Virus record (IMG/VR): IMGVR_UViG_3300037809_000520
Span: 3,259-67,258 of that record
Reading direction: 5' to 3' (one strand)
Origin: a virus
DNA length: 64,000 bases
The notes beneath the pieces are model-generated. The model was given only the letters and a program-made list of their open reading frames with translations. It had not been told where the DNA came from and made no database searches. A program made the position numbers and the translations under genes. Positions 12,012 to 59,864 of the stretch are shown one piece after another (position 1 is the first letter of the stretch; the number at the start of each line of letters is the position of its first letter).

Positions 12012-12042
12012 CAATACTTATTTTTTTATAAATATACTAAAA

Positions 12043-13947: not shown

Positions 13948-13966
13948 TTTTATTTATTTATAAATA

Positions 13967-15541
13967 TTATAATAACCATTTTATGTCATGGGATTTCCCA
14001 TCAATCTTCATTTCATATGGATTCTGTATAGAATTTATAGCAGAATGGCCACCAGTGTATGTTGTTTTGTTAGATTTTACACTACCTAATGTTGCTCTTG
14101 TCATATCTAGACTTTGTTGTTGAAATTTCAATGATGTGTCTCGTAGAAACATACCAATTCCAAATGACATAACCAAGTCATCGTTATAACCTGTTTGAGC
14201 TTCTGGTCTTCCATTTTTCCAAATGAATACTTTCATTTCTTCTATTAGGCGTTTTGAACGAATTGATACAGATTTATCACCCACAAATTCCCTAAATTTA
14301 TTTATACAAAGAGGTCTTGTTCTCATTGACATAGTAAAACCAGGAACCATTTCTGAATTGCCTTCAAATACTCTTAAATATGATTCAGCTGTAAGTTGAT
14401 CTGATTTTGGTGATTGATATAAATTTTTATATCCTCTTTCTACAATTGCATCTAAAGTAGCCCAACCAATATTAGCATTTTCAACTACTAACATTGCATT
14501 ATTATACTCTGTAGCCAATCCAGTTAAAAAATATCCAAACTCTTTAGGGGGCATTTGTCCTTTGTATTCAGCTACTTGTGTATTTGTTGCTATATCCATT
14601 ACATGGCAGGCTGAATAATCTTTACCATCACCTCTAGCTACATCTGCTACTACCATATATTCTCTAGAATAGTCTGCAGATTCCCAAATCCATAAATTTT
14701 GATCCACACCTCTTCTTTCCATTGGGTCTTTAATAGTTGTTTCATTTAAAAATTCAATCCACTCACCATAAAATACAATATCCCCTGATGTACTAAAATC
14801 ACAATCACACTCTTGGGCTGCTAATCTAGGATCACCTAACAAATCATCCTGTGCATCTCTCCATTCTTGGTTTCTTTCTGGGTGGACCCACCATGGGAGT
14901 TTTATGGGTAAAAATTGATTTTCTTTTGATTCAGCATTAACCCAAGTTTTATGAAACCAATTTCCAGTACCATAAGGTGTACTTAATACAATAGCACCAC
15001 CACCCGTTGCTAGTGTTTGTTGAGCTGATGCCCAAATTTCTCCAATATTATCAATAAAGGCAGCCTCATCAATTAATAGTAAAGATACTGCTTCTGATCT
15101 ACCAGCATCACTACTTGCTGAAGTTGCCTTAATTATTGATCCATTACTAAGTCGAAGAGATAATTTATTATTTTCTTCTGCTTTAATAGATAACCATGAA
15201 GGTAAATTATCATACATAAATTTTACCTTAGTAACCATATTACGTGCTGTTTCTTGTTTAGTCGCAATACATAATACATTTTTATCTTTATGAAACAACA
15301 TTAACCATAAAGAATAACCTGCAGATAAAGTTGATATACCTAATTGTCTTGATTTTAAAATAATTGAATAAGGATTATCTCTAACTAAATATAAAGCTTT
15401 TTCTTGGAATGGGTATAAATTAAATTGAATTCTTCCTCTTTGGGGGTGTTGAATAAAACAGTATTTTTTCATAAAATGAGCTGGGTCTTGGGCGCATCTT
15501 AAATATTCTTGTCTTATTATTTTTTTTAAATCCTCAGCCAT
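13967..15541 (-). CDS. gp17: Terminase large subunit, T4 gp17 family
   Basis: LYPFQ, KSRQLGIST, LLIDEAAF, STPYG, DVARGDGKDYS, VENAN.G, DDLVMS. Confidence 0.95.
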   Translation of the reverse strand: MAEDLKKIIRQEYLRCAQDPAHFMKKYCFIQHPQRGRIQFNLYPFQEKALYLVRDNPYSIILKSRQLGISTLSAGYSLWLMLFHKDKNVLCIATKQETARNMVTKVKFMYDNLPSWLSIKAEENNKLSLRLSNGSIIKATSASSDAGRSEAVSLLLIDEAAFIDNIGEIWASAQQTLATGGGAIVLSTPYGTGNWFHKTWVNAESKENQFLPIKLPWWVHPERNQEWRDAQDDLLGDPRLAAQECDCDFSTSGDIVFYGEWIEFLNETTIKDPMERRGVDQNLWIWESADYSREYMVVADVARGDGKDYSACHVMDIATNTQVAEYKGQMPPKEFGYFLTGLATEYNNAMLVVENANIGWATLDAIVERGYKNLYQSPKSDQLTAESYLRVFEGNSEMVPGFTMSMRTRPLCINKFREFVGDKSVSIRSKRLIEEMKVFIWKNGRPEAQTGYNDDLVMSFGIGMFLRDTSLKFQQQSLDMTRATLGSVKSNKTTYTGGHSAINSIQNPYEMKIDGKSHDIKWLL

Positions 15542-16138
15542 TTATTTTTTCCCTATTTTCCAATACACCTTTCCGGAGATTATAGGTTTAAAATCTTGAT
15601 TAACACCTAAACCTAAACCATATATTTGTTTCTTTTTATCTTTATATAAAATTTCTCCACCTAAGTAATTAATTTGATCAGATCTACCAGCTACTCCTAC
15701 TCCCCAATAAAATTCTCTATTATTAAGATATATTTCTTGGGTTAATGTTGTTGTTGGTAATAATATATCTGATTTTACTTGTCTTGAAAATATTTTGTTT
15801 TGGGTTATTGTATCTGTTATAGTTACAACTCCTAAAGAATCTAATACTATTTCATCTATGTAAACATTTTTAGCATAATAATCTTTTAATACCTCTAATG
15901 TATCTATTGGGGTTTTTATTATAATAGTATCATTTTCATATATAGTTACAATTTTTTCAATCCATTTAGGAACATATTCTATCTTATTAATAGTAATGGT
16001 ATCCCATTTAGTTTCAATCTTTGTTATAATTGTAGGTTCACTAATAGTGGGATTAGAAGAACAGCTCCTTTGTAATAAAAGGAGTACAACTAAAACTACA
16101 ATGAGTAGAAATTGAATATTTTTAAAGAAGACCTTCAA
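15542..16138 (-). CDS. Membrane-anchored or lipoprotein-like protein
   Basis: N-terminal hydrophobic helix ending QRSC; C-terminal amphipathic beta strands ending VYWKIGKK. Confidence 0.5.
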   Translation of the reverse strand: MKVFFKNIQFLLIVVLVVLLLLQRSCSSNPTISEPTIITKIETKWDTITINKIEYVPKWIEKIVTIYENDTIIIKTPIDTLEVLKDYYAKNVYIDEIVLDSLGVVTITDTITQNKIFSRQVKSDILLPTTTLTQEIYLNNREFYWGVGVAGRSDQINYLGGEILYKDKKKQIYGLGLGVNQDFKPIISGKVYWKIGKK

Positions 16139-16487
16139 GCTCTTTTTTAATTTTTGTTAATTCTCTTAAGCGATCTGTAAGTTTTTGTTTTTCAGAGCCC
16201 TCAGCATTTTTCCACTTTTTAACTACTCGCTTCATTTCAGCTGCTGTTTGTTGAAGTTTTGATGCTAATTTAGATATTGAATCTCCTTTTTTAGCTCCCT
16301 TTATGGCTTTTTTATCCATTTCATCCTCATCATCATCTTCTTCTTTCATTAGATCTTGAGTTTTTTCTAATTCATTGTTAAAATCAGCTTGAGCATCAGC
16401 TTTAGCATTAATCTCATCTGCTGATTCTGCTTCTAATAATTCAAGAATTTCTTCTTTAATGGAGGATTTTAATTCTGATTTTTTCAT
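16122..16487 (-). CDS. Small putative head-cargo protein
   Basis: MKKSELKSSIKEEILELLE leader; TATTTATA at 16502-16509. Confidence 0.5.
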   Translation of the reverse strand: MKKSELKSSIKEEILELLEAESADEINAKADAQADFNNELEKTQDLMKEEDDDEDEMDKKAIKGAKKGDSISKLASKLQQTAAEMKRVVKKWKNAEGSEKQKLTDRLRELTKIKKELEGLL

Positions 16488-16509
16488 TTAGAGTATTTTG
16501 TTATAAATA

Positions 16510-17040
16510 TCACGAAAAAATTGATTGTTTAACTAATTTTGTACGTTCTTCTGTTGATCCCTTAATCTCAATTAAATTTTTAATTTTATGTCTATATCTA
16601 ATAATTAATAATTGGATAGATTCATCAATTTTTTTTCTATAATCTGCATCTGTTTCTCGTACACCATTATTTTCAATTTCTACTCCTTCAGGAGAAACAT
16701 AAAATATATAATCATATTCATCTAACATATTACTTGCAAATGAACAAAAATCATCTGCTTCCCCATAATACATTGAAGTTGATTGTTTAGCAAAAGCCAT
16801 TACATCTATAATTGTTCTATCTGTTATAATATTATCTTGCATTAATTCACTAGCTCTTTCAGCTAAAAATACAGCTTGACCCTTTACGGTTGAGTCTGTA
16901 TTTAAAGGAATACTCATTTCCATTAAATATTTTGAACGTTCAGTTCTAAATTTATATAATTGAAATTCTGGTAATTTAGCTAAAGCGTTAACTAAAGTTG
17001 TTTTACCTACTGACATTGTACCACAAAAACCTATTTTCAT
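16510..17040 (-). CDS. P-loop nucleotide kinase (AAA_28/NadR-like)
   Basis: MKIGFCGTMSVGKTT, ITDRTIID, YDYIFY, ENNGVR. Confidence 0.75.
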   Translation of the reverse strand: MKIGFCGTMSVGKTTLVNALAKLPEFQLYKFRTERSKYLMEMSIPLNTDSTVKGQAVFLAERASELMQDNIITDRTIIDVMAFAKQSTSMYYGEADDFCSFASNMLDEYDYIFYVSPEGVEIENNGVRETDADYRKKIDESIQLLIIRYRHKIKNLIEIKGSTEERTKLVKQSIFS

Positions 17041-17728: not shown

Positions 17729-19072
17729 TTATTTTAATAATTGTTCTCCTACTAATGTTCCTTGTGCCCCCGATACTGTAATACCTCTGGCACTTAAAGC
17801 GTCACCCACAAAATGTACATTCGGATATTTTGTTAAACTTAAATCATTATAATTAACTAGGGGTTCTGGTGATAGATATTTTACTTCTGGGATGTAAATT
17901 CCCCAATCATCTTTAAGTGTTGGAAATACTTTTTTCATATCCTCAATGAAATCTTCTATATAATCATAATAACCTTTAAATGATTTTTTAACTATATCTA
18001 AAGATTTAGTGGGCATAGCATCAACTAAATCACCTTCACTTGTCATTCCTCTTTCACGTGATGGGCTATAATATAAACCCGAATTAGCTTTACGAGCATA
18101 TCTACCAATACCTTTACTACAATCCATCCATTGTGAATTTACTAATTTAACTAATTCTCTAGACCAATCAAATGGTTTATCAATGCCTTGAATTTCCATT
18201 AAAATCCCAAAATTAGTCATATTATTTCTATGTTCTTCTCCTTTTTTAGCATGTCCATTGTAGCTAACATCTCCATACGTTTGCTCAACGGCAACATATG
18301 CTGCATTGTTGTTTGTACAGAAAGAACGTAGTGATACTCCTTTGTCTTCGAATTTACGATATAACTTAAAATCATAACTTACATCAATTAGTTTTTGGAA
18401 GTGGTTTTGTGGTGCTTCAAATCGAACACCTATTTGTACTGGCTTTGGTTCTGTAGGAAGATCATATTTTTCAGCTAATTTCTTACCGAAGTCAATTCCT
18501 GATTTGCCAACACCAAATATAAGTTTATCATATGATAAGGTGAAATTATCTACTTCACTAGCATTGGTTACCACTATTTGTGAATCAAATTTAATATCGG
18601 TTACTTTTTCTTCCCATCTAAATTCTACACCACCATCTACTAAATAATTATACCAATTTTTACCTATTTCATGTAAGTAATCTGTACCTACGTGCCATAC
18701 AGGGAATAAGCGTAAGCCAAAATAGGGTTTAATAAAATCTGGTTCTGCTTGGGGGTCTGAGCATTGTACTTCCTCAGGCTTGGGATGGAATCTTTTAAAA
18801 TTATTAATTACTTGATCAAATAATTCCATTGCTTTTTCATCTCCTGTGTATTTTGATAATTGACCACCAATGGATGTATGGTAAGTTAATTTACCATCAG
18901 ACCAACCACCTGCTCCTAAGAAACCAGTCATTACTTCTTCAGGTTTTCTATCATATGGGTTTTTACCCATATCAATAATAGTGATATTACCTTTAAAGTT
19001 GTTATCTACAAGTTTTGTAGCGGCATTTACTCCTGCTACACCTGCTCCTACAATTACTACATTTTTACTCAT
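17729..19072 (-). CDS. FAD-dependent oxidoreductase
   Basis: IVGAGVAG Rossmann motif, GAGGWSDGKL, IGVRFE, RSFC, FVGD...ARGI. Confidence 0.85.
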   Translation of the reverse strand: MSKNVVIVGAGVAGVNAATKLVDNNFKGNITIIDMGKNPYDRKPEEVMTGFLGAGGWSDGKLTYHTSIGGQLSKYTGDEKAMELFDQVINNFKRFHPKPEEVQCSDPQAEPDFIKPYFGLRLFPVWHVGTDYLHEIGKNWYNYLVDGGVEFRWEEKVTDIKFDSQIVVTNASEVDNFTLSYDKLIFGVGKSGIDFGKKLAEKYDLPTEPKPVQIGVRFEAPQNHFQKLIDVSYDFKLYRKFEDKGVSLRSFCTNNNAAYVAVEQTYGDVSYNGHAKKGEEHRNNMTNFGILMEIQGIDKPFDWSRELVKLVNSQWMDCSKGIGRYARKANSGLYYSPSRERGMTSEGDLVDAMPTKSLDIVKKSFKGYYDYIEDFIEDMKKVFPTLKDDWGIYIPEVKYLSPEPLVNYNDLSLTKYPNVHFVGDALSARGITVSGAQGTLVGEQLLK

Positions 19073-19095
19073 TTAGACTTAATTTTATTTGTCAT

Positions 19096-19138
19096 TAATA
19101 TACGAAAAAAAAATGTGACCTCCAAATGAAGGCCACAG
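19096..19138 (-). terminator. Terminator overlapping a Bacteroidota-type promoter
   Basis: TGTGGCCTTCA-TT-TGGAGGTCACA then T run; TTTG in loop and TATATTAA 20 nt downstream. Confidence 0.65.
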
Positions 19139-19197
19139 ATCTTAAAATTTATTTTATATAATCGCTCGGCTATGAATCGAGCTGTAAGTTTATAATA

Positions 19198-19932
19198 TTA
19201 TGGTTGTTTTGTTGCAAATGCTAATTCCCCATTTAGTAGGATACCATGACCACATGCTAACCAACACCCAGCTGCAAGTTCATCTGATGTTGAAGTAGTA
19301 GGTAATCCAAAATGGTTAAGACCCATTCGTCCTATTGTATCCCTCATTTTTAGACTAAATTCCCCTAATGTTCCTACTGCCACATCCCAATGTATTCTTC
19401 TTCCATTTTGTCCTGCTGCTACTAAATTAGATTTTGAAACTGTATAAAAATTATAATAGTCTGCGTTTTGTTTAGGTCTTCCGGGTTTTTTGGAAGCTGC
19501 TGCTAAATTAAATTGTGACCCTACATCACCAAAATTATTAGCCCAATCAGTTGAATCAAAATCTCCTCCACTAAGAGCATAGGCCTGGGGGTCAACTGCT
19601 CCTAACCATATACACTGGGATGAAGATGGGAAAGTGACTGGCCCACCCCCTGTGTCTCCTCCAACATCCATAGCAAATCCCAAATTTTGGGTGTTTGATG
19701 TTCCTCCAACATTTACAGGCATTGAACCACATAACTCACCATCTATATCCACACTTCCCCCTATAGAAGAATTACTTGCATAATTGGGGGTGTCTATTAC
19801 AAAATTATGCTGTGAGTCTACATAATAGAGATCATCTTCATTATTATAGGAACCAAATAATCCTATACCTGTACCTACTTCTGGTGTTTTCCCAAGTGCT
19901 ACCAATCCACTAAACATCATATAATTTGCCAT
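19198..19932 (-). CDS. Hypothetical protein
   Basis: 244-aa ORF, Gly/Ser/Asn rich, A-rich upstream region. Confidence 0.6.
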   Translation of the reverse strand: MANYMMFSGLVALGKTPEVGTGIGLFGSYNNEDDLYYVDSQHNFVIDTPNYASNSSIGGSVDIDGELCGSMPVNVGGTSNTQNLGFAMDVGGDTGGGPVTFPSSSQCIWLGAVDPQAYALSGGDFDSTDWANNFGDVGSQFNLAAASKKPGRPKQNADYYNFYTVSKSNLVAAGQNGRRIHWDVAVGTLGEFSLKMRDTIGRMGLNHFGLPTTSTSDELAAGCWLACGHGILLNGELAFATKQP

Positions 19933-19958
19933 GTTTATTTTTTATTTATAATTATACA

Positions 19959-20831
19959 TTAATAATCCCATTCTTCATCATCTTCTTCATCATCATAACC
20001 ATAATCATCATCATCATCATAATCTTCTTCATCTTCATACTCAGCATCATAATTAAACATATCCTCATCTGATTCAGTATAATTTCCATCTTTACTATCT
20101 ATATAATCTAATATTTTTTCTAAAGCAAATTCAGTTAATCGTTCATATATTTTTTCTTCATCTCCTGAAGATGACATAATTTTACTAAAAATACTTTTTA
20201 ATGTCGATTGTATTTCTGAAGGAATATCTGTTGAATTAATTAAAAATGAATGAGCAGGACCTGCTGTTTCAGTACCATATCCTTTATAATAGAAATCTCC
20301 ATCATTATAATAACGATAAATAATTTTATTTATAGCTCTTAATAATTCACCTTCAATTGTATCAGCATTACCTTGTCCAGGTACTAATTTTTCAAAGTAA
20401 TCATTACTTCTTTTTTCTAATTCACCTCCAACCCATTCTTTAATCTTTTTCTTTTTTGATATTGCTGTGTCTTTACACATCTCATCAAATTCAGGTCCGT
20501 CTTGAGAGCATGCCCATTTTCTTTGTTTTTCAGAGAAAACTTCTTTTAGTTTTTGATTTTCATTTAACTTAAACTGTTGTGTAAGTTTTTCCCAAGAATA
20601 GTTTTTATCAACCCACCCTTGTAATTTTTCTTCATCCCAATCTTTCTTAAATTTATTAGCATTATTAAGATCTGTTAAGATTTTTAATTTTTTAGCAGTA
20701 CGTTCGTTCCACTCTTTATTTGATAATTCCTTTTCTGCTTTTCGACTTACATCTATGGCATCCCACCTTGATTCGGTTGATTCTGTTAATCTACCTTCTG
20801 CTAAATATTTTTTTAAATCGAAATTTTTCAT
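19959..20831 (-). CDS. Tagged modular protein (start revised to 20831)
   Basis: Begins MKNFDLKKYLAEGRLTE; internal LNE/LKE/IKE boundaries; acidic tail. Confidence 0.7.
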   Translation of the reverse strand: MKNFDLKKYLAEGRLTESTESRWDAIDVSRKAEKELSNKEWNERTAKKLKILTDLNNANKFKKDWDEEKLQGWVDKNYSWEKLTQQFKLNENQKLKEVFSEKQRKWACSQDGPEFDEMCKDTAISKKKKIKEWVGGELEKRSNDYFEKLVPGQGNADTIEGELLRAINKIIYRYYNDGDFYYKGYGTETAGPAHSFLINSTDIPSEIQSTLKSIFSKIMSSSGDEEKIYERLTEFALEKILDYIDSKDGNYTESDEDMFNYDAEYEDEEDYDDDDDYGYDDEEDDEEWDY

Positions 20832-20841
20832 TTGTTTTATT

Positions 20842-21348
20842 TTACGGTGTAGTAGAATATATATATTCGTTAAATTGAAGATTGATATACTTGTCATATG
20901 GCATCGTACCCACATTATAAGCAAATTTATCTTTACCAATAGGAGCTTCATTTTTATTAATAAACCGTTTACGTTTTGTAACAAAATCTATTAAATATTG
21001 CTCTGGGTCTTCTTGTTTTTTTAATTGAGGGTGATTAGCTAATATTGGTTTAATTCTTTTTACTATATCTTCTACCGAATCTCTTTCGTATGCCATTTCG
21101 GCTATATCTTCTTCTTTAATTACACCTTCAGATAAATCTATATATGATTTCAAATCATCAAGTAAATCTTTATCTGTAGAGTTTTCATAGGCATCAGGTT
21201 CAAAATTTCCATCGAGTTCATCTATATAATCTTCAATATATTCATCCTCTATGCCTTTTTCTTTTCCTAATTTCCTAACTCTTGAAGCAATTTCATCTGC
21301 AGTTACACCTTCTGTAAGGAATTGTCTAAATCTGTATAGTTCTTTCAT
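20842..21348 (-). CDS. Acidic small protein with variant leader
   Basis: MKELYRFRQFLTE leader; internal LSEGVIKE. Confidence 0.65.
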   Translation of the reverse strand: MKELYRFRQFLTEGVTADEIASRVRKLGKEKGIEDEYIEDYIDELDGNFEPDAYENSTDKDLLDDLKSYIDLSEGVIKEEDIAEMAYERDSVEDIVKRIKPILANHPQLKKQEDPEQYLIDFVTKRKRFINKNEAPIGKDKFAYNVGTMPYDKYINLQFNEYIYSTTP

Positions 21349-21355
21349 TTTATTT

Positions 21356-21706
21356 TTATATTATATCTTGTATTTTAGTATATTGATCTGCAGTTAGAAC
21401 ATCAAAAGTATAATCTTCAAAATCACCACCATCATAAAGTATAGTTGATACTGCTCCAGCAATATCATTTCTTAATTCTTTTGAATCAGCATTTAAAGCT
21501 TTAACTGCCTTAACATAATCTTTAAATGTGTTCATAGCTTCATCGGATACTTTTCCAAATTCAGCATCAACACCACCAGCATCAATTACATCATCATTTC
21601 CTACTTTAATTTCTCCTGCTGCCCATTCTGACCAGTAGTCTCTTAAATTATCTTCTTTTAGTAGCCTACCTTCAGCTAAATATTTTTTTAAATTGAAATT
21701 TTCCAT
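21356..21706 (-). CDS. Tagged small acidic protein (start revised to 21706)
   Basis: MENFNLKKYLAEGRLLKED. Confidence 0.7.
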   Translation of the reverse strand: MENFNLKKYLAEGRLLKEDNLRDYWSEWAAGEIKVGNDDVIDAGGVDAEFGKVSDEAMNTFKDYVKAVKALNADSKELRNDIAGAVSTILYDGGDFEDYTFDVLTADQYTKIQDII

Positions 21707-21722
21707 TTTTATTTTATTTATT

Positions 21723-22124
21723 TTATCTCCAAAATTCACTTCCTTCTACCATCCAACGTTCAAAATCTTTATCAGAATGTACAAACTCTACACCTTTTGG
21801 ATTTCCTATAAAGTAATCATCAAGCATTTGTTCTGTATCAATTTCAAATCCTAAATACTCTGACATTTTATCTTCATTAGTTTCTAAAAATTTGTCTCCA
21901 TTTTCGGATGTAAAGTCTTTTTTATCTTCTTCAACGTTTGCAGGATCAGTAAAATATCCATAGTTAATATAATCTATAAATTCTTCTTCTAATTTTTTTA
22001 CATCAACATCCATGTATTTGGTATAACTAAAGAAATCAAGTAATTCTTGTCCTCTTAGCTTAGTGATGTCTTCTTTTAATAGTTTACTTTCAGCTAAATA
22101 CTTTTTTAAATTGAAATTTTCCAT
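21723..22124 (-). CDS. Tagged small acidic protein
   Basis: MENFNLKKYLAESKLLKED. Confidence 0.7.
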   Translation of the reverse strand: MENFNLKKYLAESKLLKEDITKLRGQELLDFFSYTKYMDVDVKKLEEEFIDYINYGYFTDPANVEEDKKDFTSENGDKFLETNEDKMSEYLGFEIDTEQMLDDYFIGNPKGVEFVHSDKDFERWMVEGSEFWR

Positions 22125-22135
22125 TTACTTTTATT

Positions 22136-22504
22136 TTAAAAGTTAAGTGCTATTTTTTTAGCTGTTTCTCCTTCTTCAGGGGTTATTAATCCTTGTTTAA
22201 CATGAACATCAATAGCATCTAGAACAGACTCACGATCTGCTCCTGTTCCAACATCTAAATTTGCTTGTTTTACCCACTCGTCTTCTAAAGCCATGTAATC
22301 TTCAATAGACATTGTTTTAGGAGCGGGTAAAATATTACTTTTAATCCATCCAGCATCTTCTACATCAAAGCCAAAATCATCCGGTGAGGTAAGTACATCT
22401 TTAATGTAGTCATTACCACCAAACATAATAGTGGTGTCAACCATTATCTCTTCTTTTAATAGTTTACTTTCAGCTAAATATTTTTTTAAGTCAAATTCTT
22501 TCAT
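22136..22504 (-). CDS. Tagged small acidic protein
   Basis: MKEFDLKKYLAESKLLKEE. Confidence 0.7.
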   Translation of the reverse strand: MKEFDLKKYLAESKLLKEEIMVDTTIMFGGNDYIKDVLTSPDDFGFDVEDAGWIKSNILPAPKTMSIEDYMALEDEWVKQANLDVGTGADRESVLDAIDVHVKQGLITPEEGETAKKIALNF

Positions 22505-22515
22505 TGTTATATTTT

Positions 22516-23037
22516 TTATATAAAATTAGATAAACCCCATTCCCCATCTCCTTCTGAGCTAGGCATATAATATTTTATTAGGGGTTTGAATATTTTCTCC
22601 ATACCCGATTTTCTAACCTTAATAATTTCATCTTCGATTCTTGTTGATCTAATACTACTTATAAGCTTTTCAAATTCGGGTGTGATTTCATCCAATTTGA
22701 AGGTGAAAATAGCGTAATTCCCCATCATATCAACACCCGGTTGTTTCCTTCTTTCGTTTATGTATTTTCCTTTAAAAAAGGAATCACCTATTGTTTTTAC
22801 AAATACATCTGTGGGTGTATCTTCATCACCAACAGATCCATTAACCCTTATAGCTGTTACACCCCCTATTGGTTTCTCCTCAAACACCCTTGATATTTCC
22901 TCTTTGATTATTTTACGTAGTTCCGATTTTTTCATTTTATTTGGTTTTATAAAATCTTTATACCTTCCTGTTTTAATTAAATGTTCTTCCAATAGAGGAT
23001 TTTTTGATATAAATGTTTTTAAGTCAAAATCTTTCAT
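22516..23037 (-). CDS. Protein with two leader types in tandem
   Basis: MKDFDLKTFISKNPLLEE followed by MKKSELRKIIKEE. Confidence 0.65.
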   Translation of the reverse strand: MKDFDLKTFISKNPLLEEHLIKTGRYKDFIKPNKMKKSELRKIIKEEISRVFEEKPIGGVTAIRVNGSVGDEDTPTDVFVKTIGDSFFKGKYINERRKQPGVDMMGNYAIFTFKLDEITPEFEKLISSIRSTRIEDEIIKVRKSGMEKIFKPLIKYYMPSSEGDGEWGLSNFI

Positions 23038-23057
23038 TTTTATTTTATTGGTTTATT

Positions 23058-24089
23058 TTAATTAAATCTTCTGCTTATATTAGTTGCTTCACCAGCTACT
23101 ACTTTACCATTTTGTAAAAGAACAACTCCATTAGCTGAATCACCATCAGCTTCTGAATTGTTAATAAGTCTATTTAGTTCTTCATAATACATATCCAAAT
23201 TATCTTCTATGTGTTTATTAAAGACACTTTCCCAATTATCTCCAGCTGCATCTAATTCATCTGTAAGTCCAAATTTTCTTTCAAAGTGTTCGATATCCCA
23301 ATAACTTTTAATAGAATCTTTTATATATTCTTCTTTACTATCATAAACAATATAATCAGGACCTTCATCATTCCAAAATATCATGTGGTACATTCCTGGT
23401 TTAAGGTCAATCATATATTCATCACTAAATTGTTCTTCTTCAGAAGAAGCATCATGTTCAGCTCTATTTCCTATATAAAGTTCTTGATAATCATCATGGC
23501 TAAGTATTGTAGCCATATCTATATCTTCTTTTAATAGCTTACCTTCAGCTAAACCTGATAGTTTATCTTTAGCCCATTCTTTAGCCAATTTTACGGCTTC
23601 ATCTTTAGAATAAAATCCTTGTTCTACAGCATTCATTATCTCATAATAGTCATCGCTTACAATTTCTTCAGCAGATGCATCTATAATACCCTGAAGATAT
23701 ACTTCAGGTTCTACTACCATAGCACCCATTGCACCTTCAAATTCATCTTCCATTTCTGGGAAGTCTATAGCTTCATTTAATAGCTTACCTTCAGCTAAAT
23801 ATTTTTTTAAATCGAAATTTTCCATTTGGGTTTGTTTTATATTATGTAATTTATCATACCATGCTTTATATTCGGGATCTCTAAGAAGATTAGCTGTAAC
23901 CATATCTGACATTGCATCAAATCCACCATTATCAAAACGATCTAGTTCATACTGAGCATCATCTGGGTCTTTAACGTATTTCATGATAATATCAAGTAAC
24001 GCATCCATACTTTCATCATCAAAGACTGTAGGTTCGTTTTCAAATAGCTTACCTTCAGCTAAATATTTTTTTAAATCGAAATCTTTCAT
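23058..24089 (-). CDS. Fusion of three tagged modules
   Basis: MKDFDLKKYLAEGKLFE, internal MENFDLKKYLAEGKLLNE and LAEGKLLKED. Confidence 0.7.
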   Translation of the reverse strand: MKDFDLKKYLAEGKLFENEPTVFDDESMDALLDIIMKYVKDPDDAQYELDRFDNGGFDAMSDMVTANLLRDPEYKAWYDKLHNIKQTQMENFDLKKYLAEGKLLNEAIDFPEMEDEFEGAMGAMVVEPEVYLQGIIDASAEEIVSDDYYEIMNAVEQGFYSKDEAVKLAKEWAKDKLSGLAEGKLLKEDIDMATILSHDDYQELYIGNRAEHDASSEEEQFSDEYMIDLKPGMYHMIFWNDEGPDYIVYDSKEEYIKDSIKSYWDIEHFERKFGLTDELDAAGDNWESVFNKHIEDNLDMYYEELNRLINNSEADGDSANGVVLLQNGKVVAGEATNISRRFN

Positions 24090-24106
24090 TTTATTTTATT
24101 AGTTTA

Positions 24107-24154
24107 TTATACATATGTCAATTTATTCAAAATATTACATCCGCATTTACACAT
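24107..24154 (-). pseudogene. 15-codon remnant resembling the N-terminus of the 26898 gene
   Basis: MCKCGCNILNKLTYV* versus MCNCGCNTC; has its own TATTTATA at 24167-24174. Confidence 0.5.
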
Positions 24155-24175
24155 ATCTTATTTTATTATAAATAT

Positions 24176-25759
24176 TTATAATTTTTTTGCTTTTGATATT
24201 TCTATCGTATTTTGCTCTCCACCATTACTTCTAGCTGATATTTTTAGTTGGTATTGAGATATTCTATCATCACCTACCATTATATTTACAGTCATATCAA
24301 TAATTAAAGAACCATTTTTATTACCATCATATATTTTGATTTTTGTTCCTGGGGTTAATTTAGCTGTTGCTCCCGCTGGGAATTTTTCTGGTGTATCGGC
24401 AGTTGATCCATCAGTTTTTCCTATTAATTTAAAATATGTTGGGTTAACACCTGAAATAGACATACCATAAGCTGCCATTTTAACAAGTGCTGTAACTGGG
24501 TTTGTTTCTCCAGCCTTATCTTTAAACCAAGTTATTAAATAATCTAAAGCTTTATAAGCAGCTAATTTAAATTTTTTCTGTTGTATTGTTGGTGGGTTTT
24601 CTCCTGCTTTAAAATCAATAAATTCTTGATTACCAAGTTTACCCATTACAGTACTTTTATAAGAACCCAATGCAGTATCAAAATCATACCCATCTTGCAT
24701 TTCATCTTTACTTAAGCCATATATTGGGGGAAGTGGTTTGTTATCTCCATCTGCGGGTAGTAAATCAGGATTTAAATTTTTAAGAAACCCTTTTGCTTTA
24801 CCACCTTGTGCATTTTGTTGTTTTAATGATACTGCGACAAATTCAGCATCCGTTTCTCCCCATTGACCTTCAAATAATTCATTAAGTTTACCCCAAGGCA
24901 TAGCATCTGTTTCTAATTTTTTTACATCAAACCCTGGTTTGAGTTCTACATAAATATCTCCTGGGTTCCATTTATCTTTATCTATACCTGTTGCTGCCGC
25001 ACCTGCTGATCTTATCTTTTCAAAAGCTCCATCTCGGATTAAATCATAACTACCATAATCTGCGTGTAATCTTTTTGCTGATGAAAGTGGATCATTTAAT
25101 GCCGCTAAAGCAGCTAAACTTGAATTTGCATTTTCTCCCTTTAATATAGGTAATTTTTTATTAACTTCTTTTTTTGAGGTGTCATCCATACCTTTAGTAT
25201 TAATTGGTAAGGAATTTAAAAGTTCATAATAATTTTCTGATGTGAATGGGTCTTTTTTTTTATTCCAATCATCTTTTAACGCATTAAAAAATAAAATTAC
25301 TAATCCTTCTTTAACATTTGTATTTGTACTAAATTTACTTCCAGCACCTTTAATAACAAATATTTCTCCATCTTCTGTTTCTAAATAAAACGCACCTTTA
25401 TTTGATGTTACCTTACCTGGTGGTAATGCTCCTTTTTTAACTAGATCATCAGTTAAATCTTTTCTAAGCCCTCTACCTTTTTCACTTACATCTTTTAAAT
25501 AAATCCAAGTACCTTTTGGAGTACCAACACCTGTTTTCTTTGTTTGGATTGCTTCTACTTCATAACCATCTAAAGCATTTATTCTTGATTTTAAATCCAA
25601 TAAATCTTCTGGTAGGCCTTCTGAATCTTCAAATTCCATAACGACTAATTGTTCCAATAATGTTTCTAGTAATAAAACATCCTGATCATTATTCATGTCA
25701 GGATATCCTTTAGGAAATTTATATGCTATTTTATTTAAAAATTTATCTATTACATCCAT
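24176..25759 (-). CDS. Putative PD-(D/E)xK restriction-endonuclease-fold protein
   Basis: KDKWNPGDIYV...FVAVSLKQ motif pair; N-terminal leader ending LLETLLE. Confidence 0.5.
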   Translation of the reverse strand: MDVIDKFLNKIAYKFPKGYPDMNNDQDVLLLETLLEQLVVMEFEDSEGLPEDLLDLKSRINALDGYEVEAIQTKKTGVGTPKGTWIYLKDVSEKGRGLRKDLTDDLVKKGALPPGKVTSNKGAFYLETEDGEIFVIKGAGSKFSTNTNVKEGLVILFFNALKDDWNKKKDPFTSENYYELLNSLPINTKGMDDTSKKEVNKKLPILKGENANSSLAALAALNDPLSSAKRLHADYGSYDLIRDGAFEKIRSAGAAATGIDKDKWNPGDIYVELKPGFDVKKLETDAMPWGKLNELFEGQWGETDAEFVAVSLKQQNAQGGKAKGFLKNLNPDLLPADGDNKPLPPIYGLSKDEMQDGYDFDTALGSYKSTVMGKLGNQEFIDFKAGENPPTIQQKKFKLAAYKALDYLITWFKDKAGETNPVTALVKMAAYGMSISGVNPTYFKLIGKTDGSTADTPEKFPAGATAKLTPGTKIKIYDGNKNGSLIIDMTVNIMVGDDRISQYQLKISARSNGGEQNTIEISKAKKL

Positions 25760-25780
25760 CTAATGATAGTATTTTGATTT

Positions 25781-25813
25781 GTAAATATACGACTCTTGTT
25801 TTAGGGAGCCACG
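25781..25813 (-). promoter_or_regulatory. Bacteroidota-type promoter
   Basis: GTGG-N-CGTATATTTAC upstream of ATG 25759. Confidence 0.55.
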
Positions 25814-25827
25814 TAATTTATATTATT

Positions 25828-26898
25828 CTACCAAGCTTTACAAGACCAATATCTGGCCTTAGTTTTAGGTCCTGGGGTATCACATTTATGTCTTTTTGCA
25901 AATGCAGCACGGGCTTTGGAGTCATTTATTTTTGCTCTTAAACCACCAGATCCAAATCTAACGGTTTTAATTTTCTTGGTTTTAGGATCCTTAACGTATA
26001 CTTTATATGCTTTTCCACCGGATGTATCACGCATTGGTTTTCCTATTGGTCTATTGTCTTTTTTCTTAGCTTTTTTCTTTTTAGCTTCATCTAAGCTGCC
26101 AGCTTGTAATCTAACAAACCCATTATCTTTTAACCACTTAGCTGCTTCTTTAGCATTAGAAGCTTCTCCATCAAAATCATCAGTTTGGAAATAATAACCC
26201 TCTGGTGTCTTATAAACATCTACCATACCATCAGGACCATCAAAAATTGCAATGTGGTTTGAAGAATTAAAAGTTCCTTCATTCATAGACATATTATCTA
26301 TTTCATCATGAACCCATTCTTTTTCATTGTCACCTAATTGGTCATAATCCATTCCAAATTCCATATTTGCTAACTCGTCTTCAAGATCCATTTGCTCATT
26401 TAATTCAATAGGAAAATCTAATGGTACTTTTTTATTTTCAGCTAATTCAAATTTATCGAATTTATTTAAATCATTTAAAGATTTTAATTCAACTCTTTTA
26501 CCATCACTACCTAATCCATAAACTGTAGCATCATATTTACCAAACCCATCTGAGCGTACTCCTTTAAGTTTTTGTTTTAATTCTGCTCCTGCTCTACGCT
26601 TACTTACTGTTGATGTTTGTTCTAATAAACCAAAATGGCCTAAATTAGTTTCTGTAAGTAAAGCTAAATCATCTTTATTAGTAAATTCTAAAATACCTCT
26701 ACTATATAAAGATCTTGCTTCTGCAAATAATTTAAAATAATCACGTGAACCAATGCTGCATAAATGCTTAATAAGCGGTTTATTATTGTCTATATGATAT
26801 CTTAAATCCCTAGACAACATAGCCCTTGGAGCTTTGCTCTCATTAAGTACTAACGCAGTACTTTTAGTCTTACACGTATTACATCCACAGTTACACAT
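25828..26898 (-). CDS. Modular protein with Cys-rich N-terminus and basic C-terminal domain
   Basis: MCNCGCNTC; LNE/LLE/LAE/MNE/LDE boundaries; VRFG...AFAKRHKC...ARYWSCKAW. Confidence 0.65.
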   Translation of the reverse strand: MCNCGCNTCKTKSTALVLNESKAPRAMLSRDLRYHIDNNKPLIKHLCSIGSRDYFKLFAEARSLYSRGILEFTNKDDLALLTETNLGHFGLLEQTSTVSKRRAGAELKQKLKGVRSDGFGKYDATVYGLGSDGKRVELKSLNDLNKFDKFELAENKKVPLDFPIELNEQMDLEDELANMEFGMDYDQLGDNEKEWVHDEIDNMSMNEGTFNSSNHIAIFDGPDGMVDVYKTPEGYYFQTDDFDGEASNAKEAAKWLKDNGFVRLQAGSLDEAKKKKAKKKDNRPIGKPMRDTSGGKAYKVYVKDPKTKKIKTVRFGSGGLRAKINDSKARAAFAKRHKCDTPGPKTKARYWSCKAW

Positions 26899-26923
26899 AT
26901 TATTTCATTTTATTTTTTAACCC

Positions 26924-27376
26924 CTATGCATCTATATCAATGTTATCATCTACCTCAACATCTACATCTTCTCCACCACCTTCACTTCCACCTTCAACAG
27001 CATCAGTGTCAGCTTTTACACCATATCGTAAAATACGTGCAATAGCTTCAGTTGCTCTTTCTTCTTCTGGTAGGTTTAATAGATAGTATTTTTTGCCTTC
27101 AACTTGAGCTATCCAACTGGTTTTTGTATAAATTAAATAAAAATCTTGGTCATTTTTAAGATTTATTCTAAATGTTGTAGGTTTTGGGGCAACCCAATCA
27201 ATTGATGATAAAAATGAATCAAATTCATGAGTTAATAAGTCAACAATAACAGCTTTTAGCTCTGGGAATTTAGTTAATTCATCATATTCCACTGCAGCTT
27301 CTTCTGCTTGTTTCTTATTACCAACAACAGTTGGGACAAGTAATCTTATCTTTTCCCTTAATTCTGCTGCTGTCAT
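26924..27376 (-). CDS. Hypothetical protein
   Basis: Intact ORF in operon, acidic tail. Confidence 0.65.
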   Translation of the reverse strand: MTAAELREKIRLLVPTVVGNKKQAEEAAVEYDELTKFPELKAVIVDLLTHEFDSFLSSIDWVAPKPTTFRINLKNDQDFYLIYTKTSWIAQVEGKKYYLLNLPEEERATEAIARILRYGVKADTDAVEGGSEGGGEDVDVEVDDNIDIDA

Positions 27377-27377
27377 A

Positions 27378-29459
27378 TTATTTTTGTTTTGCTGTTGGAC
27401 CTTTACCTCCGCCTTTTGCTTTATATGATGCTACTGCACCTGCAATTGCTTTTGCTGCTTTTTCGGATTTACCTGATTTTTTACCTTTTACTGGTTTACT
27501 TTCATTCATTGAATTATTCAACATTTCATTCTGAGCTTTGTTTTGTGATTCACCTATGTTTGGATATTTACCAATTACGGGTTTTTTAGAATTCAATGAT
27601 TTCTTGGCAAACTTCATCCATGTAGTATAATCCTCTTTACTACCAAAATCGTCTGCATTTACTGATTTGAAAAACCTCGTATCAATATAAATTATTGCAA
27701 ATTCTTCACCGTTACCACCATTTCCATCTACACCAATGTAATCCGTTTCATCTTCCAATGTGTATCCAAATAATTCATCATTTTTAAGTTGAGTTGCTTT
27801 TTGAACTGCCTGTTTGAATGATGGGTAGTTTGCAACATCATCATGTCCATGTTTTACACCGTGATATTCAACATTATAATGTGATTTTCTACTCTTTACA
27901 GGTTTACTCTCATTCATTCTACCATCTTGATCTTCATCCTTAGCATCAATTTTTTTATCCCAAAATCCTTTAGGTAAACCTTCTTTTAAATCTTTAGCTA
28001 ATTTTTCTGCTATTGTACTATATTTAGATGGTTTATTTTCATTTACTGCTGCACCTTCAAAATATTCAGCAGGACCTATTTTCATTTTACTTTTATCAGT
28101 AACACCGGTGTCAAACCAAGCTTTAATAGCATTATCAACATTTTGACCACCTAAGAAATAGCTTAGTAGACTTTCTAATCCTTTAGCTCCATCATCTACA
28201 AAATCATCAAATTGTTCTTCGGTATCAAATTCCATTTTGTCATCTGATGTAAATAAATAAGTTGGTTTATTTTGTAAATTAGACATAGCAAAGGGCATTC
28301 CACTACCTTCGTGGTTTCCAAAATAAGATTCTTTAAGGGATACAATATCTTTTGATGGTGTTTCTTTATATTTGAAATAAATAGCATATCTTTTTTTATT
28401 GCCATTATAGTCTTCTAAATATACTATTTTTTTAGCAAATGCTTTTCCGTTGTAGGCACGGCGCCATTTATTCATGTTCATAGTTTCGTTTATTGGTTTT
28501 TGGTTTTCTTCAAACGCCCCCGAAGCATATTCTCTTCCTACGGAAACATCACCTAATTCATTTGGGGTATATAATGACGCTTGAAATCCAGTATCGTCAT
28601 CTGTACCTAATTGGCCAGTTTCTTCAGCTACTGCTTGATCATATGTCATTTCTTTTCTTCCTCTTAACTTATCTAATTGTTTATCAATTTTATTAAGCAT
28701 ATAACCATACTCATCTGCAATTGGTCCTCCTTCTGGCTCTGCTTCTTGTTCCATATCCATTAATAATTCTTCTCTTTTAGCTAACAATAAACCTATATGA
28801 TAGGAATTATCTTTTGGTTTTTTAGGAGATTTTTTTGATTTAATTTTAGATTTTTCTTTCATTGCAGCCTCAAATTCTTTTCTATCTTTAGCCATTTGTC
28901 TCATTACACGAACTCTAACATTGAAAGGATCATTTATATCTGTGTCTTCACCTAATGGCTCTGAAAATTTAGAACTAATAGGTTCGTCATTTAAAAATGG
29001 GTCATCTGCTACTATATCAATATGGTCTCTTATCATTGAATCTAAATATAAATTAGCATCATCTGTAGATAATGCTTTCATTAGGGACTGAATAATATAA
29101 TCATCATCACCAATAGCATCTCTAAGTCTATCTAATTTACCCCATGCTTTTTCATCTAAAGTTTCTTTTAGATTTTTTTCAATAGCAGATCCCCTAGTTT
29201 TTTCATAATCTGATAGCTTACCATCCTTATTTAAATCGGCTTTTTTAGGATTTTTTAAAGCATCTTTAATCAACTCAGTTAGTTTAGGGTCTCTCATTTC
29301 TTTAGTTTGTTTTTTTGCCATATTAGTAGCACGCCCATACATAACTGCCTCTGCATCTTTACCATATTTCTTAACAAGGTCACGTTTGTTACCTTTCATA
29401 TTCATGATAATATCTTCCCTTTTTTTAAGTTCTGACTTAGACAGCTTACGTTCGTTCAT
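27378..29459 (-). CDS. Large modular putative head-cargo polyprotein
   Basis: Many short segments bounded by MNE/LKE/LDE/INE/VNE; MNESKPVK occurs twice. Confidence 0.6.
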   Translation of the reverse strand: MNERKLSKSELKKREDIIMNMKGNKRDLVKKYGKDAEAVMYGRATNMAKKQTKEMRDPKLTELIKDALKNPKKADLNKDGKLSDYEKTRGSAIEKNLKETLDEKAWGKLDRLRDAIGDDDYIIQSLMKALSTDDANLYLDSMIRDHIDIVADDPFLNDEPISSKFSEPLGEDTDINDPFNVRVRVMRQMAKDRKEFEAAMKEKSKIKSKKSPKKPKDNSYHIGLLLAKREELLMDMEQEAEPEGGPIADEYGYMLNKIDKQLDKLRGRKEMTYDQAVAEETGQLGTDDDTGFQASLYTPNELGDVSVGREYASGAFEENQKPINETMNMNKWRRAYNGKAFAKKIVYLEDYNGNKKRYAIYFKYKETPSKDIVSLKESYFGNHEGSGMPFAMSNLQNKPTYLFTSDDKMEFDTEEQFDDFVDDGAKGLESLLSYFLGGQNVDNAIKAWFDTGVTDKSKMKIGPAEYFEGAAVNENKPSKYSTIAEKLAKDLKEGLPKGFWDKKIDAKDEDQDGRMNESKPVKSRKSHYNVEYHGVKHGHDDVANYPSFKQAVQKATQLKNDELFGYTLEDETDYIGVDGNGGNGEEFAIIYIDTRFFKSVNADDFGSKEDYTTWMKFAKKSLNSKKPVIGKYPNIGESQNKAQNEMLNNSMNESKPVKGKKSGKSEKAAKAIAGAVASYKAKGGGKGPTAKQK

Positions 29460-29461
29460 TC

Positions 29462-29617
29462 TTACTTATGGTTTCTTTTGAAATCAGCAGAAAAGTTTTT
29501 AATCTTATTAGCAGCAGATCTACATCTACCTTTGGCAGCAGCGCTTGTTTTTTCAATTTCTGCTTCAATTAATAATACTTGTTCTTTGATTCCTTCTAAT
29601 AATTCTTTTGTATCCAT
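29462..29617 (-). CDS. Small basic protein resembling histone H1-like Hc1 family (absent from ORF track)
   Basis: 51 aa MDTKELLEGIKEQVLLIEAEIEKTSAAAKGRCRSAANKIKNFSADFKRNHK. Confidence 0.6.
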   Translation of the reverse strand: MDTKELLEGIKEQVLLIEAEIEKTSAAAKGRCRSAANKIKNFSADFKRNHK

Positions 29618-29653
29618 TTTTATAAATTTTATTGGTTAATAACTAGTTTTTAT

Positions 29654-30538
29654 TTATTTTATCAATCCTGCTAATTTTGGAAATCTAGATAATGATTCAT
29701 CTAACGCAAATCCAATTTCAGCATCTTCAGCTGGATTGTCTTTTGTTACATTAACTATACTATCAGAGTCAACTTCATCACCACCAGAACCAACGAATCT
29801 TTCAGGATCCATTCCTTGTTCTTCATTAGTAGCTACAACGTGTGCTCTAGTATAATAAGTAATTGTATTTCCTATTTGATCAAGTAACTTTTCATCACCC
29901 AGAGATTTTGCCTCTTCTTGAGCTTTAGTTAAAAGACCTAATATAGCTGCTACATCCGAAGACTCACCTGCTAGTTCAGAATCAACTTCAATTTCTGATT
30001 TTGAAGATTCATCATCAATATCAACTTCGTCTTCAATGTCGATGTCAATGTCTTCATTGTCTTCAACATCTACTTCTTCAGCTTCAGTTAAATTCCACCA
30101 TTCAGGTTTAGAATCACCGGATGCAAATTCATCTTCTAAATGATCTAAAAAATCTTCTCTTGAAGAGGTTTCAAATTCATAATCATCTTTATCATCATAT
30201 CTATTTGGGAAGTAATCGTCTGCCCAATCTTTAATAACATCCATTGGTACATCCATTTTGTAGTACCTTTTCATATCACCTTTGATTTCTGGGTACATAT
30301 CATCACCTTCAAAATTCAATAGTTCTTCTTTAATAACATCATCCTTAAAATCCTTTTTAAGTTTAGCTAATTTTTCTTCGTTGTCTTTAATATCTTTTTC
30401 AAGATTTTTTATGTGGTCTCTATCATCACGAATAGCACCTTCCATACGTTTTTGTTCTTCACTGTTTCCTTTTTTAGAATCTTCAGCTTCAGATAAAAAC
30501 TGACTCTTGATGATTTCTTTTAATTCCGATTTTTTCAT
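29654..30538 (-). CDS. Acidic putative head/core protein
   Basis: MKKSELKEIIKSQFLSE leader; C-terminal RFPKLAGLIK like scaffold; TATTTATA at 30571-30578. Confidence 0.6.
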   Translation of the reverse strand: MKKSELKEIIKSQFLSEAEDSKKGNSEEQKRMEGAIRDDRDHIKNLEKDIKDNEEKLAKLKKDFKDDVIKEELLNFEGDDMYPEIKGDMKRYYKMDVPMDVIKDWADDYFPNRYDDKDDYEFETSSREDFLDHLEDEFASGDSKPEWWNLTEAEEVDVEDNEDIDIDIEDEVDIDDESSKSEIEVDSELAGESSDVAAILGLLTKAQEEAKSLGDEKLLDQIGNTITYYTRAHVVATNEEQGMDPERFVGSGGDEVDSDSIVNVTKDNPAEDAEIGFALDESLSRFPKLAGLIK

Positions 30539-30830
30539 TATATTTGTATTTTTCTGTTGATTAATTTTATTATAAATATGTTAGGATTTTTCCTTATTGA
30601 TATTTTTTGCCGGATTTAATGGCTGATTTATATGTTTTATCTTTCCTTTTTTCTTTTTAAGTCTTCTAAGTATTCAATTTGTTTACGAGTTAATTTATTA
30701 TAATCAAATACTTCTCTATCTTCTTTTAAATCTTTAGCTGATTTATATAGTGAAAGTAGTCTTTTAAGTTCTTTCTGTACTAACATTTCTGTTTCACTAG
30801 TTAAAGGTTCACCATTAGCTTCACCACTAT

Positions 30831-31280: not shown

Positions 31281-31310
31281 TAGTTTTAGTTATAAATATA
31301 TAAAAATATG

Positions 31311-59673: not shown

Positions 59674-59750
59674 TGGTGAACCCGGTAGGATTCGAACCTA
59701 CGACCGTCGCCTTAGAAGGGCGATGCTCTGTCCAGCTGAGCTACGAGTCC
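59674..59750 (-). tRNA. tRNA-Arg(UCU)
   Basis: Full cloverleaf, TCGCC-CTTCTAA-GGCGA anticodon arm, GTTCGAATC, encoded CCA. Confidence 0.95.
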
Positions 59751-59775
59751 ATAAGTCAAATAACGTTTGGAAATT

Positions 59776-59864
59776 TGGTACCGCTGGGCGGGCTCGAACC
59801 GCCACGAGCCATTCGGCTCATCAGATTTTAAGTCTGACGTGTCTACCAATTCCACCACAGCGGC
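59776..59864 (-). tRNA. tRNA-Leu(UAA)
   Basis: TCAGA-CTTAAAA-TCTGA anticodon arm, long variable arm, GTTCGAG, encoded CCA. Confidence 0.95.

Follow-up and report, generated by a model that had tools for sequence, protein, structure and literature searches.

Seven tightly packed genes of 116-343 codons each, located on the minus strand at positions 19959-24089 of the window (the whole 64,000-nt stretch analysed here, taken from the IMG/VR virus record IMGVR_UViG_3300037809_000520), raise the question why proteins that appear unrelated in their remaining parts should start with the same short peptide. The full copies of this N-terminal tag follow the pattern MxxF[DN]LKKYLAE[GS][KR]L..E, with the 18-residue consensus MDNFDLKKYLAE-GKLLKE. 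The answer that we favour, and consider likely, is that the tag would be a prohead-targeting propeptide that is removed by the head protease.

The array holds six full copies of the tag, one partial, one degenerate and one variant copy (Table 1). Five genes start with M[KE][NDE]F[DN]LKKYLAE[GS][KR]L, continued by L-K-E, F-E or T-E. The near-identical starts listed in an initial annotation of this DNA were all located on the minus strand, and so were the second in-frame tag and the partial third tag that it had described in the gene of 343 amino acids (aa), which reads as a three-module fusion. In a six-frame search of the 67,258-nt contig, a tag profile recovered the same six full tags (E <= 1.7e-12), the partial copy (E 0.0019) and, weakly, the degenerate one (E 1.0), with no comparable match outside the array. 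Conservation of the tag at the DNA level, as put forward in that annotation, is pronounced: over their initial 54 nt the six full tags share a mean identity of 83.8% (15 pairs), against 29.1% over the next 54 nt and 37.9% over the 54 nt upstream. The genes had also been called unrelated beyond the tag; in line with this, a BLASTP comparison of the payloads (the parts that follow the tag) within the array gave no similarity at E <= 0.1, save one match of 14 residues (E 0.069). The description of the payloads as acidic domains of 90-170 aa needs amendment. The isoelectric point (pI) of the whole protein is 4.2-4.6 in six of the seven cases, and the seventh protein, of 173 aa, is basic; the protein sizes range from 116 to 343 aa.

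How far the tag extends beyond the window was determined by a scan of IMG/VR with a degenerate DNA pattern for F[DN]LKKYLAE, which yielded at least 117 loci. As these were gathered via the tag itself, the gene-context frequencies among them are biased; the gene positions are unaffected. Of the 123 in-frame matches, 113 have a Met exactly three residues ahead of the Phe. With a looser pattern 188 tagged open reading frames (ORFs; 182 unique) were obtained from 115 sources, 46 of which have two or more. A 32-position profile, built from 122 tags, was searched against 1.84 billion representatives (one for each cluster at 50% identity), of which 1,776 matched at E <= 0.001. Among the matches listed, 138 of 150 begin at residue 1, and two or more matched stretches occur in 120 of 150, a figure raised by the ranking on summed score, which favours such proteins. 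In 596 Gb of cellular genomes (185,579 species genomes) the same DNA pattern was found in ten stretches, two of them genuine N-terminal tags. A chance origin of the tag is excluded, because these ten stretches stand against the at least 117 IMG/VR loci. Judged from this distribution the tag is widespread and restricted to phages. The two genuine cellular tags lie on contigs of metagenome-assembled genomes (L126 and L128) that are labelled as bacterial, one in a Microbacteriaceae bin and the other in an unclassified bin; these are probably phage DNA binned with bacteria. Within 50,697 deposited phage records, a 21-residue tag query matched only four records of Flavobacterium phage vB_FspM_immuto (E 4), a nucleotide search with the array gave no match, and tblastn with one whole tagged protein gave none at E <= 1.

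The information content of the tag amounts to 1.6-4.3 bits at 18 positions (at least 2.3 bits at 16 of these), after which it drops to 0.8 and then to about 0.3-0.6. The codons vary and the residues are constant: Phe is encoded by TTT (104) or TTC (84), Leu by CTA (76), TTA (71), CTT (16) or TTG (11), and Lys by AAG (63) or AAA (62). Since the same residues are kept despite differing codons, selection acts on the tag peptide. It is therefore extremely improbable that the peptide is functionless and that the shared start is the trace of a recent duplication or a DNA element, such as a recombination site or a translation-start context. Such an origin would account for the 84% identity of the tag DNA in the window, for the tandem arrangement of the genes and for the modules that are clearly exchanged at the tags, but not for residues that stay constant over 188 copies, nor for conservation that ends abruptly past residue 18; moreover, a cultured relative with only 59% identity in the capsid protein has retained the tag, and partial tags that have no start codon are conserved inside proteins.

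Matches to the capsid protein, protease, portal, large terminase and baseplate wedge identify the contig as part of a T4-type myovirus, a marine phage. Its nearest relative among deposited and among cultured phages is immuto (160 kb), with the same gene order and a capsid protein that is 58.9% identical; immuto has four tagged genes, and their payloads are all different. Aligned along its entire length, the window protease shares 32% identity with T4 gp21 (E 3e-23), and both contain QLLIET near the N-terminus as well as the His and Ser motifs GEL[DN]HP and GVSSRG. We propose it as the candidate enzyme for tag removal, with a specificity that is carried over from T4 by analogy. The capsid propeptide can be aligned with that of T4 gp23, and the T4 cut site, which we take to be after Glu65 (this fits the residue count), lies opposite QLVME in the window capsid protein. 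The acidic scaffold protein has a conserved N-terminus (xxL[KR]EAIA[DE]AK) and a C-terminal KLAG[IL] motif, and is proposed as the candidate docking partner of the tags. A complex prediction for the scaffold and the first 40 residues of a tagged protein, run without controls, scored 0.00, a value that speaks neither for nor against binding.

The tag contains what look like two cut motifs. L-A-E occupies residues 10-12 in all six full tags of the window, and a second [LI]xE follows no more than nine residues past the first Glu in 162 of the 182 tags, against 6.1% of payload 9-mers. When the residue at position 13 after the Phe is Glu, the L-x-E comes one step earlier; when it is Lys, L-K-E is formed. 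The L-x-E is thus retained with either residue at this position, which indicates that the motif itself is kept. In the payloads [LI]xE is avoided, with 190 occurrences against 302.4 +/- 15.5 in shuffled sequences (z -7.2). The payloads show no such shortage of related motifs: [LI]xD is found more often than in the shuffled sequences (426 against 320, z +6.9), and the counts of [VM]xE (156 against 164.6, z -0.75) and [FYW]xE (226 against 226.5, z -0.03) are close to those after shuffling. In 537 untagged ORFs of the same loci [LI]xE is 1.30-fold enriched (2829 against 2175, z +16.9), and the scaffold, a protein that the protease should destroy, has 17 where 9.2 are expected. The 343-aa protein carries the motif at residues 12, 17, 100, 106, 182 and 188, solely inside its three tags. 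Depletion in the payloads together with enrichment in the scaffold suggests that the payloads are meant to survive the protease, and we consider this avoidance the strongest new evidence that the tag is a capsid address.

The same motifs bear on the idea that the tag is a protein signal unrelated to the capsid, for instance a helix that serves oligomerisation or localisation, a site bound by a host factor, or a signal for regulated degradation. A short, amphipathic, Lys-rich peptide that is conserved as protein could serve in any of these ways. However, such a signal leaves unexplained why [LI]xE is paired in 162 of 182 tags, why the payloads are depleted of [LI]xE and not of [LI]xD, [VM]xE or [FYW]xE, why tagged genes occur in the head-assembly operon of relatives, why partial tags act as linkers between modules, and why the tag resembles the T4 capsid targeting sequence (CTS) in a phage with a gp21-type protease. 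We regard it as quite improbable.

Grouped by payload, the 188 tagged ORFs form 98 clusters, of which 59 have a single member. The median pI of the payloads is 4.5; 70% lie below 5 and 8.5% above 8. The content of the array is not identical across relatives: any one window payload occurs in 0-8 of the 117 loci (that of the 116-aa gene has homologues in six), compared with 37 and 32 loci for the flanking genes at 17729-19072 and 25828-26898. In 21 loci homologues of both flanks enclose 1-4 tagged genes with differing payloads, so that, as the initial annotation had anticipated, the payloads vary and the tag stays in place, with conserved genes on either side. The head operon contains a second variable site: in 14 of the 23 protease-bearing loci, 1-3 tagged genes directly follow the protease gene and precede the scaffold gene. 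This second site is relevant for an alternative in which the tag does target the core and is cut, but the payloads are core or scaffold filler, expelled or degraded at packaging, rather than effectors. Besides the frequent location of tagged genes between protease and scaffold genes, it is favoured by the acidity of the payloads, which equals that of the scaffold (pI 4.1-4.5 versus 4.3), by the fusion of one payload domain within homologues of a head-module protein, and by the T4 core proteins gp67 and gp68, which are also small and partly acidic. Filler would hardly be expected, however, to be poor in [LI]xE (z -7.2) where the scaffold is rich in it (17 versus 9.2), a pattern suggestive of survival of the protease, nor to comprise about 100 unrelated families in 188 genes (1,776 clusters overall) that vary among close relatives. 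We consider it unlikely that the payloads are filler.

Variation is also seen within single genes. The 290-aa protein consists of the tag, a helical segment, a mobile Cys mini-module (VFSEKQRKWACSQDGPEFDEMCKDTAISKKKKIKE) and a conserved helical domain of about 135 aa that carries an acidic Asp/Glu/Tyr tail. At least 578 homologues of this C-terminal domain were found. Elsewhere it is preceded by the tag of the array (tag A), by MKELxxFRxFLxE, by the extended variant MxxNFNIxKFFKNQYLxE or by partial tags, and it also occurs within homologues of the head-module protein at 9974-11161 (P0081, P0087) and of the 693-residue protein at 27378-29459. The variant MKELKxFRxFL[NT]E, seen in the window on the 168-aa gene, heads P0008, P0011, P0035, P0041 and P0062 as well, in each case with this same payload domain. 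P0123 and P0125 share two modules whose order is reversed between them, each module being flanked by a tag or a partial tag (...LLKE), and the payload of the 122-aa gene returns as the second module of the four-module P0129, behind the partial tag LKLAEGRLLKE. Permuted modules at tags are the expected product of recombination at the tag DNA, and they also fit cleavable joints in polyproteins. The proposal that cassettes are shuffled through the tag DNA is supported at the sequence level by fused multi-tag proteins that share modules in differing order. Two conserved neighbouring genes on the minus strand also share parts with tagged proteins: a module of the 356-aa protein at 25828-26898 (FGMDY.QLG..EKEW..DEIDNM) recurs in the tagged P0266, and P0039 and P0053, both with the payload domain of the 290-aa gene, start with the N-terminus of the 693-aa protein at 27378-29459.

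If the tag is indeed a capsid address, the system could work as follows. During head assembly the tag would serve to dock the protein behind it in the core that the scaffold forms in the prohead. The gp21-type protease would cut twice, behind the Glu of YLAE and behind that of the next L-x-E, which would free the payload in the head. Internal full and partial tags (LAEGKLLKE) would be cleavable linkers, at which the 343-aa polyprotein would be split into its modules. The payloads, mostly small and acidic and having lost internal [LI]xE, would outlast the protease. Finally, the near-identical tag DNA would be a recombination handle for swapping, fusing and reordering cassettes; in the window this site is beside the packaging genes, in relatives it is between the genes for protease and scaffold. 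Docking to the core, cleavage and retention in the mature head are all steps that we infer. That the payloads stay in the head and enter the host is plausible, with a chance somewhat short of even, and that they would be anti-defence or host-takeover factors is rather doubtful. Only tentatively do we put forward a broader interpretation, in which tag and linker (LAEGKLLKE) form a universal address-and-cut grammar, and thousands of unrelated, protease-resistant acidic modules would be shuffled, joined into polyproteins, cut in the head and injected together with the DNA as a rapidly evolving arsenal of anti-defence or host-takeover effectors. The users would be T4-type phages of Flavobacteriia, forming a large clade in marine and other aquatic habitats.

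Several observations weigh against the reading that we favour. The second [LI]xE is absent from 20 of the 182 tags. The motif [LI]xxE is likewise rarer in the payloads (z -5.0), so that part of the [LI]xE depletion could have another cause. The array in the window lies 4.4 kb from the terminase gene, outside the head operon. The likeness of the tag to the T4 CTS is a resemblance in a 12-residue pattern without detectable homology. Furthermore, the payloads are mostly acidic (median pI 4.5), whereas the T4 internal proteins IPII and IPIII are basic (pI 9.3-9.6; mature forms 9.6), and acidic proteins might be expelled at DNA packaging, not kept and injected. Virion proteomics or N-terminal data for tag-bearing phages (immuto, its relatives and the Baltic Flavobacterium phages) were not found in the literature searched.

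Searches for a payload function gave little. None of the seven window proteins had a match in Pfam or PHROG. Of 148 tagged proteins from the loci, Pfam recognised one Zeta_toxin-like kinase (1.4e-16), a DUF5872, a DUF6960 and a few weak cases, and none of the others. The protein encoded at L037:3641-4198, which starts with MNDFNLKKYLAEGRLLKENKDNPKAIILAGAPGA, is probably the one behind this Zeta_toxin / P-loop kinase match, to judge from its P-loop motif; it would be a rare enzymatic payload. Structure prediction, which the initial annotation had suggested as a check on the payloads, was informative for the 290-aa protein in so far as it gave a confident C-terminal helical domain (predicted local distance difference test, pLDDT, above 88 at residues about 141-260, the remainder not being confident), but no fold match suggesting a function: the best hit in a PDB fold search had an E-value of 1.1, and a viral fold search returned one unnamed match (E 1.1e-4). 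For two payload parts, the ESM Atlas gave no usable match.

The kind of mechanism proposed here is already known from T4. Sequence records give MKTYQEFIAE as the N-terminus of both IPII and IPIII. According to passages in PMC9026906, the ten residues of the CTS are enough for head loading and gp21 cleaves after the Glu, residues 4 and 7 governing targeting and residues 8 and 10 processing; passages in PMC3012670 describe the T-even internal proteins as diverse, with the CTS alone conserved, and IPI* as an inhibitor of GmrS/GmrD. In the window tag as in the T4 CTS, position 4 is aromatic and the ending is aromatic-aliphatic-Ala-Glu. In both systems (in T4, the internal proteins and Alt) unrelated proteins are headed by one short N-terminal propeptide, and the head genes of the window phage include a protease of the gp21 type, an acidic scaffold that is gp22-like and a capsid protein of the gp23 type. 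The set of internal proteins varies among related phages in T4 as well (passages in PMC3012670 and PMC9026906). The differences are equally clear. The window tag has 18 residues and two cut motifs, the T4 CTS ten and one; tandem arrays of up to six tags and frequent multi-tag fusions are found here; and the family is very large (1,776 clusters) and belongs to marine or aquatic, largely uncultured phages related to immuto. Homology of tag or payload to T4 IPI, IPII, IPIII or Alt was not detected with Pfam and PHROG on the seven window proteins. Of the T4-like internal-protein system that had been postulated, the T4-type machinery and a CTS-like tag with two L-x-E motifs stand, and the cargo, mostly acidic, departs from the basic IPII and IPIII.

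The giant phages phiKZ, 201phi2-1 and SPN3US offer a second parallel: passages in PMC9026906 report that the propeptides of their head-internal proteins are removed after Glu by a gp21-related protease, and that these propeptides have redundant cleavage sites. They differ in the lack of one shared tag on unrelated small proteins and of tandem cassettes, and their capsid protein and protease are more distant. No homology to the inner-body or ejection proteins of giant phages was found. In encapsulins, too, a short conserved peptide directs unrelated cargo inside a shell of HK97 fold. The encapsulin peptides are usually C-terminal and bind the shell protein, and no protease takes them off; the likeness is one of analogy and not of relationship. 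The Dar proteins of phage P1 are head-packaged anti-restriction proteins that need N-terminal regions for incorporation (PMC9024508), but the head machinery is another one and a common short tag or cassette array is lacking. The text string 'KKYLAE' was not found in the searchable literature text, the capsid-targeting papers did not concern marine or flavobacterial phages as far as their titles and abstracts tell, and the accessible text of PMC7077304 does not treat immuto. Within this scope, then, this tag, the double cut site, the linker form, the acidic cargo, the scale and the phage clade were not found in the literature.

Capsid-delivered proteins are the first among the phage products to meet the host defences. 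To our knowledge, outside T4, P1, P22, N4 and the giant phages such proteins are hard to spot from sequence. Here at least 1,776 protein clusters without known function, from aquatic phages that are abundant, are marked by one recognisable tag. Provided that this tag is a capsid address, the tagged proteins form a defined and searchable class of candidate injected effectors, the avoidance of [LI]xE becomes a sequence-only test of exposure to the head protease, and tag plus linker would make a simple tool to load foreign proteins into the heads of flavobacterial phages; the permuted multi-tag proteins would then show a signal sequence that doubles as a recombination handle. Should the broader interpretation of an address-and-cut arsenal be true, no larger natural library of capsid-delivered proteins would be known, and a tag for protein delivery would be at hand for phages of the Bacteroidota. 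The idea is directly testable, as immuto and its host Flavobacterium sp. LMO8 are both cultured.

Table 1. Features of the window, in order of position, with the sequences of the tags and motifs.
Feature	Coordinates	Strand	Tag or motif sequence	Remarks
Major capsid protein, gp23 type	5170-6813	-		Pfam Gp23 E 2e-76, from residue 80; N-terminal propeptide
Acidic scaffold (prohead core) protein, 381 residues	6857-8002	-		between protease and capsid genes; pI 4.3
Prohead protease, T4 gp21 type	8193-8795	-		Pfam Peptidase_S77 E 1.6e-29
Promoter-like motif, examples of other sites	12026-12035, 13958-13967, 16501-16510, 30570-30579, 31290-31299		ATATTTATAA	
121-aa acidic gene	16122-16487	-	MKKSELKSSIKEEILELLEAE	tag B
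290-aa tagged gene	19959-20831	-		mosaic
Full tag of 290-aa gene	ATG 20831	-	MKNFDLKKYLAEGRLTES	
168-aa gene	20842-21348	-	MKELYRFRQFLTEG	variant tag, start 21348
116-aa tagged gene	21356-21706	-		start taken as ATG 21706; [LI]xE solely at residues 12, 18
Full tag of 116-aa gene	ATG 21706	-	MENFNLKKYLAEGRLLKE	
133-aa tagged gene	21723-22124	-		
Full tag of 133-aa gene	ATG 22124	-	MENFNLKKYLAESKLLKE	
122-aa tagged gene	22136-22504	-		[LI]xE solely at residues 12, 18
Full tag of 122-aa gene	ATG 22504	-	MKEFDLKKYLAESKLLKE	
173-aa gene	22516-23037	-		basic, pI 9.1; degenerate tag A, then internal tag B
Degenerate tag A of 173-aa gene	start 23037	-	MKDFDLKTFISKNPLLEE	
Internal tag B of 173-aa gene	22876-22935	-	MKKSELRKIIKEEISRVFEE	
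343-aa gene	23058-24089	-		first of array; three tags
Partial third tag of 343-aa gene	23526-23552	-	LAEGKLLKE	from 23552
Second full tag of 343-aa gene	23772-23825	-	MENFDLKKYLAEGKLLNE	in frame, from 23825
Full tag of 343-aa gene	24036-24089	-	MKDFDLKKYLAEGKLFEN	ATG 24089
Promoter-like motif	24166-24175	-	ATATTTATAA	77 nt upstream of first gene of array
294-aa acidic gene	29654-30538	-		N-terminal tag B; scaffold-like C-terminal motif RFPKLAGLIK
149-aa gene	30831-31280	-	MDNFNITKWNRNRYLKE	extended tag variant

A second shared N-terminal tag, tag B, reads MKKSELKxxIKEEI...L-x-E. Apart from its occurrences in the window it heads diverse proteins in 18 places in 118 loci, mostly ending in L-x-E, and it is also found on immuto35A_190 and _198. 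The extended variant of the 149-aa gene (MDNFNITKWNRNRYLKE) also heads P0017, P0068 and P0088 and is found on immuto35A_201, which directly follows the protease gene. Further tagged genes of immuto are immuto35A_193 and _194 and those at record positions 1812 and 103774. It may be that head-internal proteins are encoded throughout the block 19959-31280. The motif [RF]x[KQ]KLAG[IL][IK] ends the scaffolds of the window (6857-6880), of immuto and of several loci, and a motif of this KLAG type is likewise present at the C-terminus of the 294-aa protein (29654-29680). In other proteins it is internal or N-terminal and then followed by [ST]E, which produces an I-x-E site; the motif may be a third signal for core binding or cleavage.

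Upstream of the array lies a motif, ATATTTATAA, of which the window holds 14 exact copies (2.9 +/- 1.6 expected), 12 of them on the coding strand. Eleven of these 12 are located just upstream of gene starts, including those of the portal gene, of 11154-12014 and of the genes starting at 16487, 30538 and 31280. Copies with one mismatch are not over-represented in the window (57 against 55.7 expected). The motif is probably a promoter motif, perhaps a late one. It was met in a search for a T4-like late promoter, in which TATAAATA was also considered.

Among the head genes, the head-module protein encoded at 8804-9973 (minus strand), between the protease and portal genes, has the N-terminus MKTLQEQYN...HIFLKE, and its immuto counterpart MRTLQEKYN...HFIAEA. 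Both recall the T4 CTS MKTYQEFIAE with an insertion that splits it. The window protein contains 12 [LI]xE where 5.6 are expected. Two annotations in immuto (MW353176) look mistaken: immuto35A_193 (10733-11734), annotated as 'cob(I)alamin adenosyltransferase', is a tag-bearing acidic protein, and _203 (18728-19969), annotated as 'DNA polymerase phi-like protein', is the acidic scaffold protein. Elsewhere in the window, the tail and baseplate region contains an ORF of 2,665 codons (40422-48419, minus strand) without a PHROG match, and adjoining genes for tRNA-Arg(TCT) and tRNA-Leu(TAA) are located at 59674-59864 on the minus strand.

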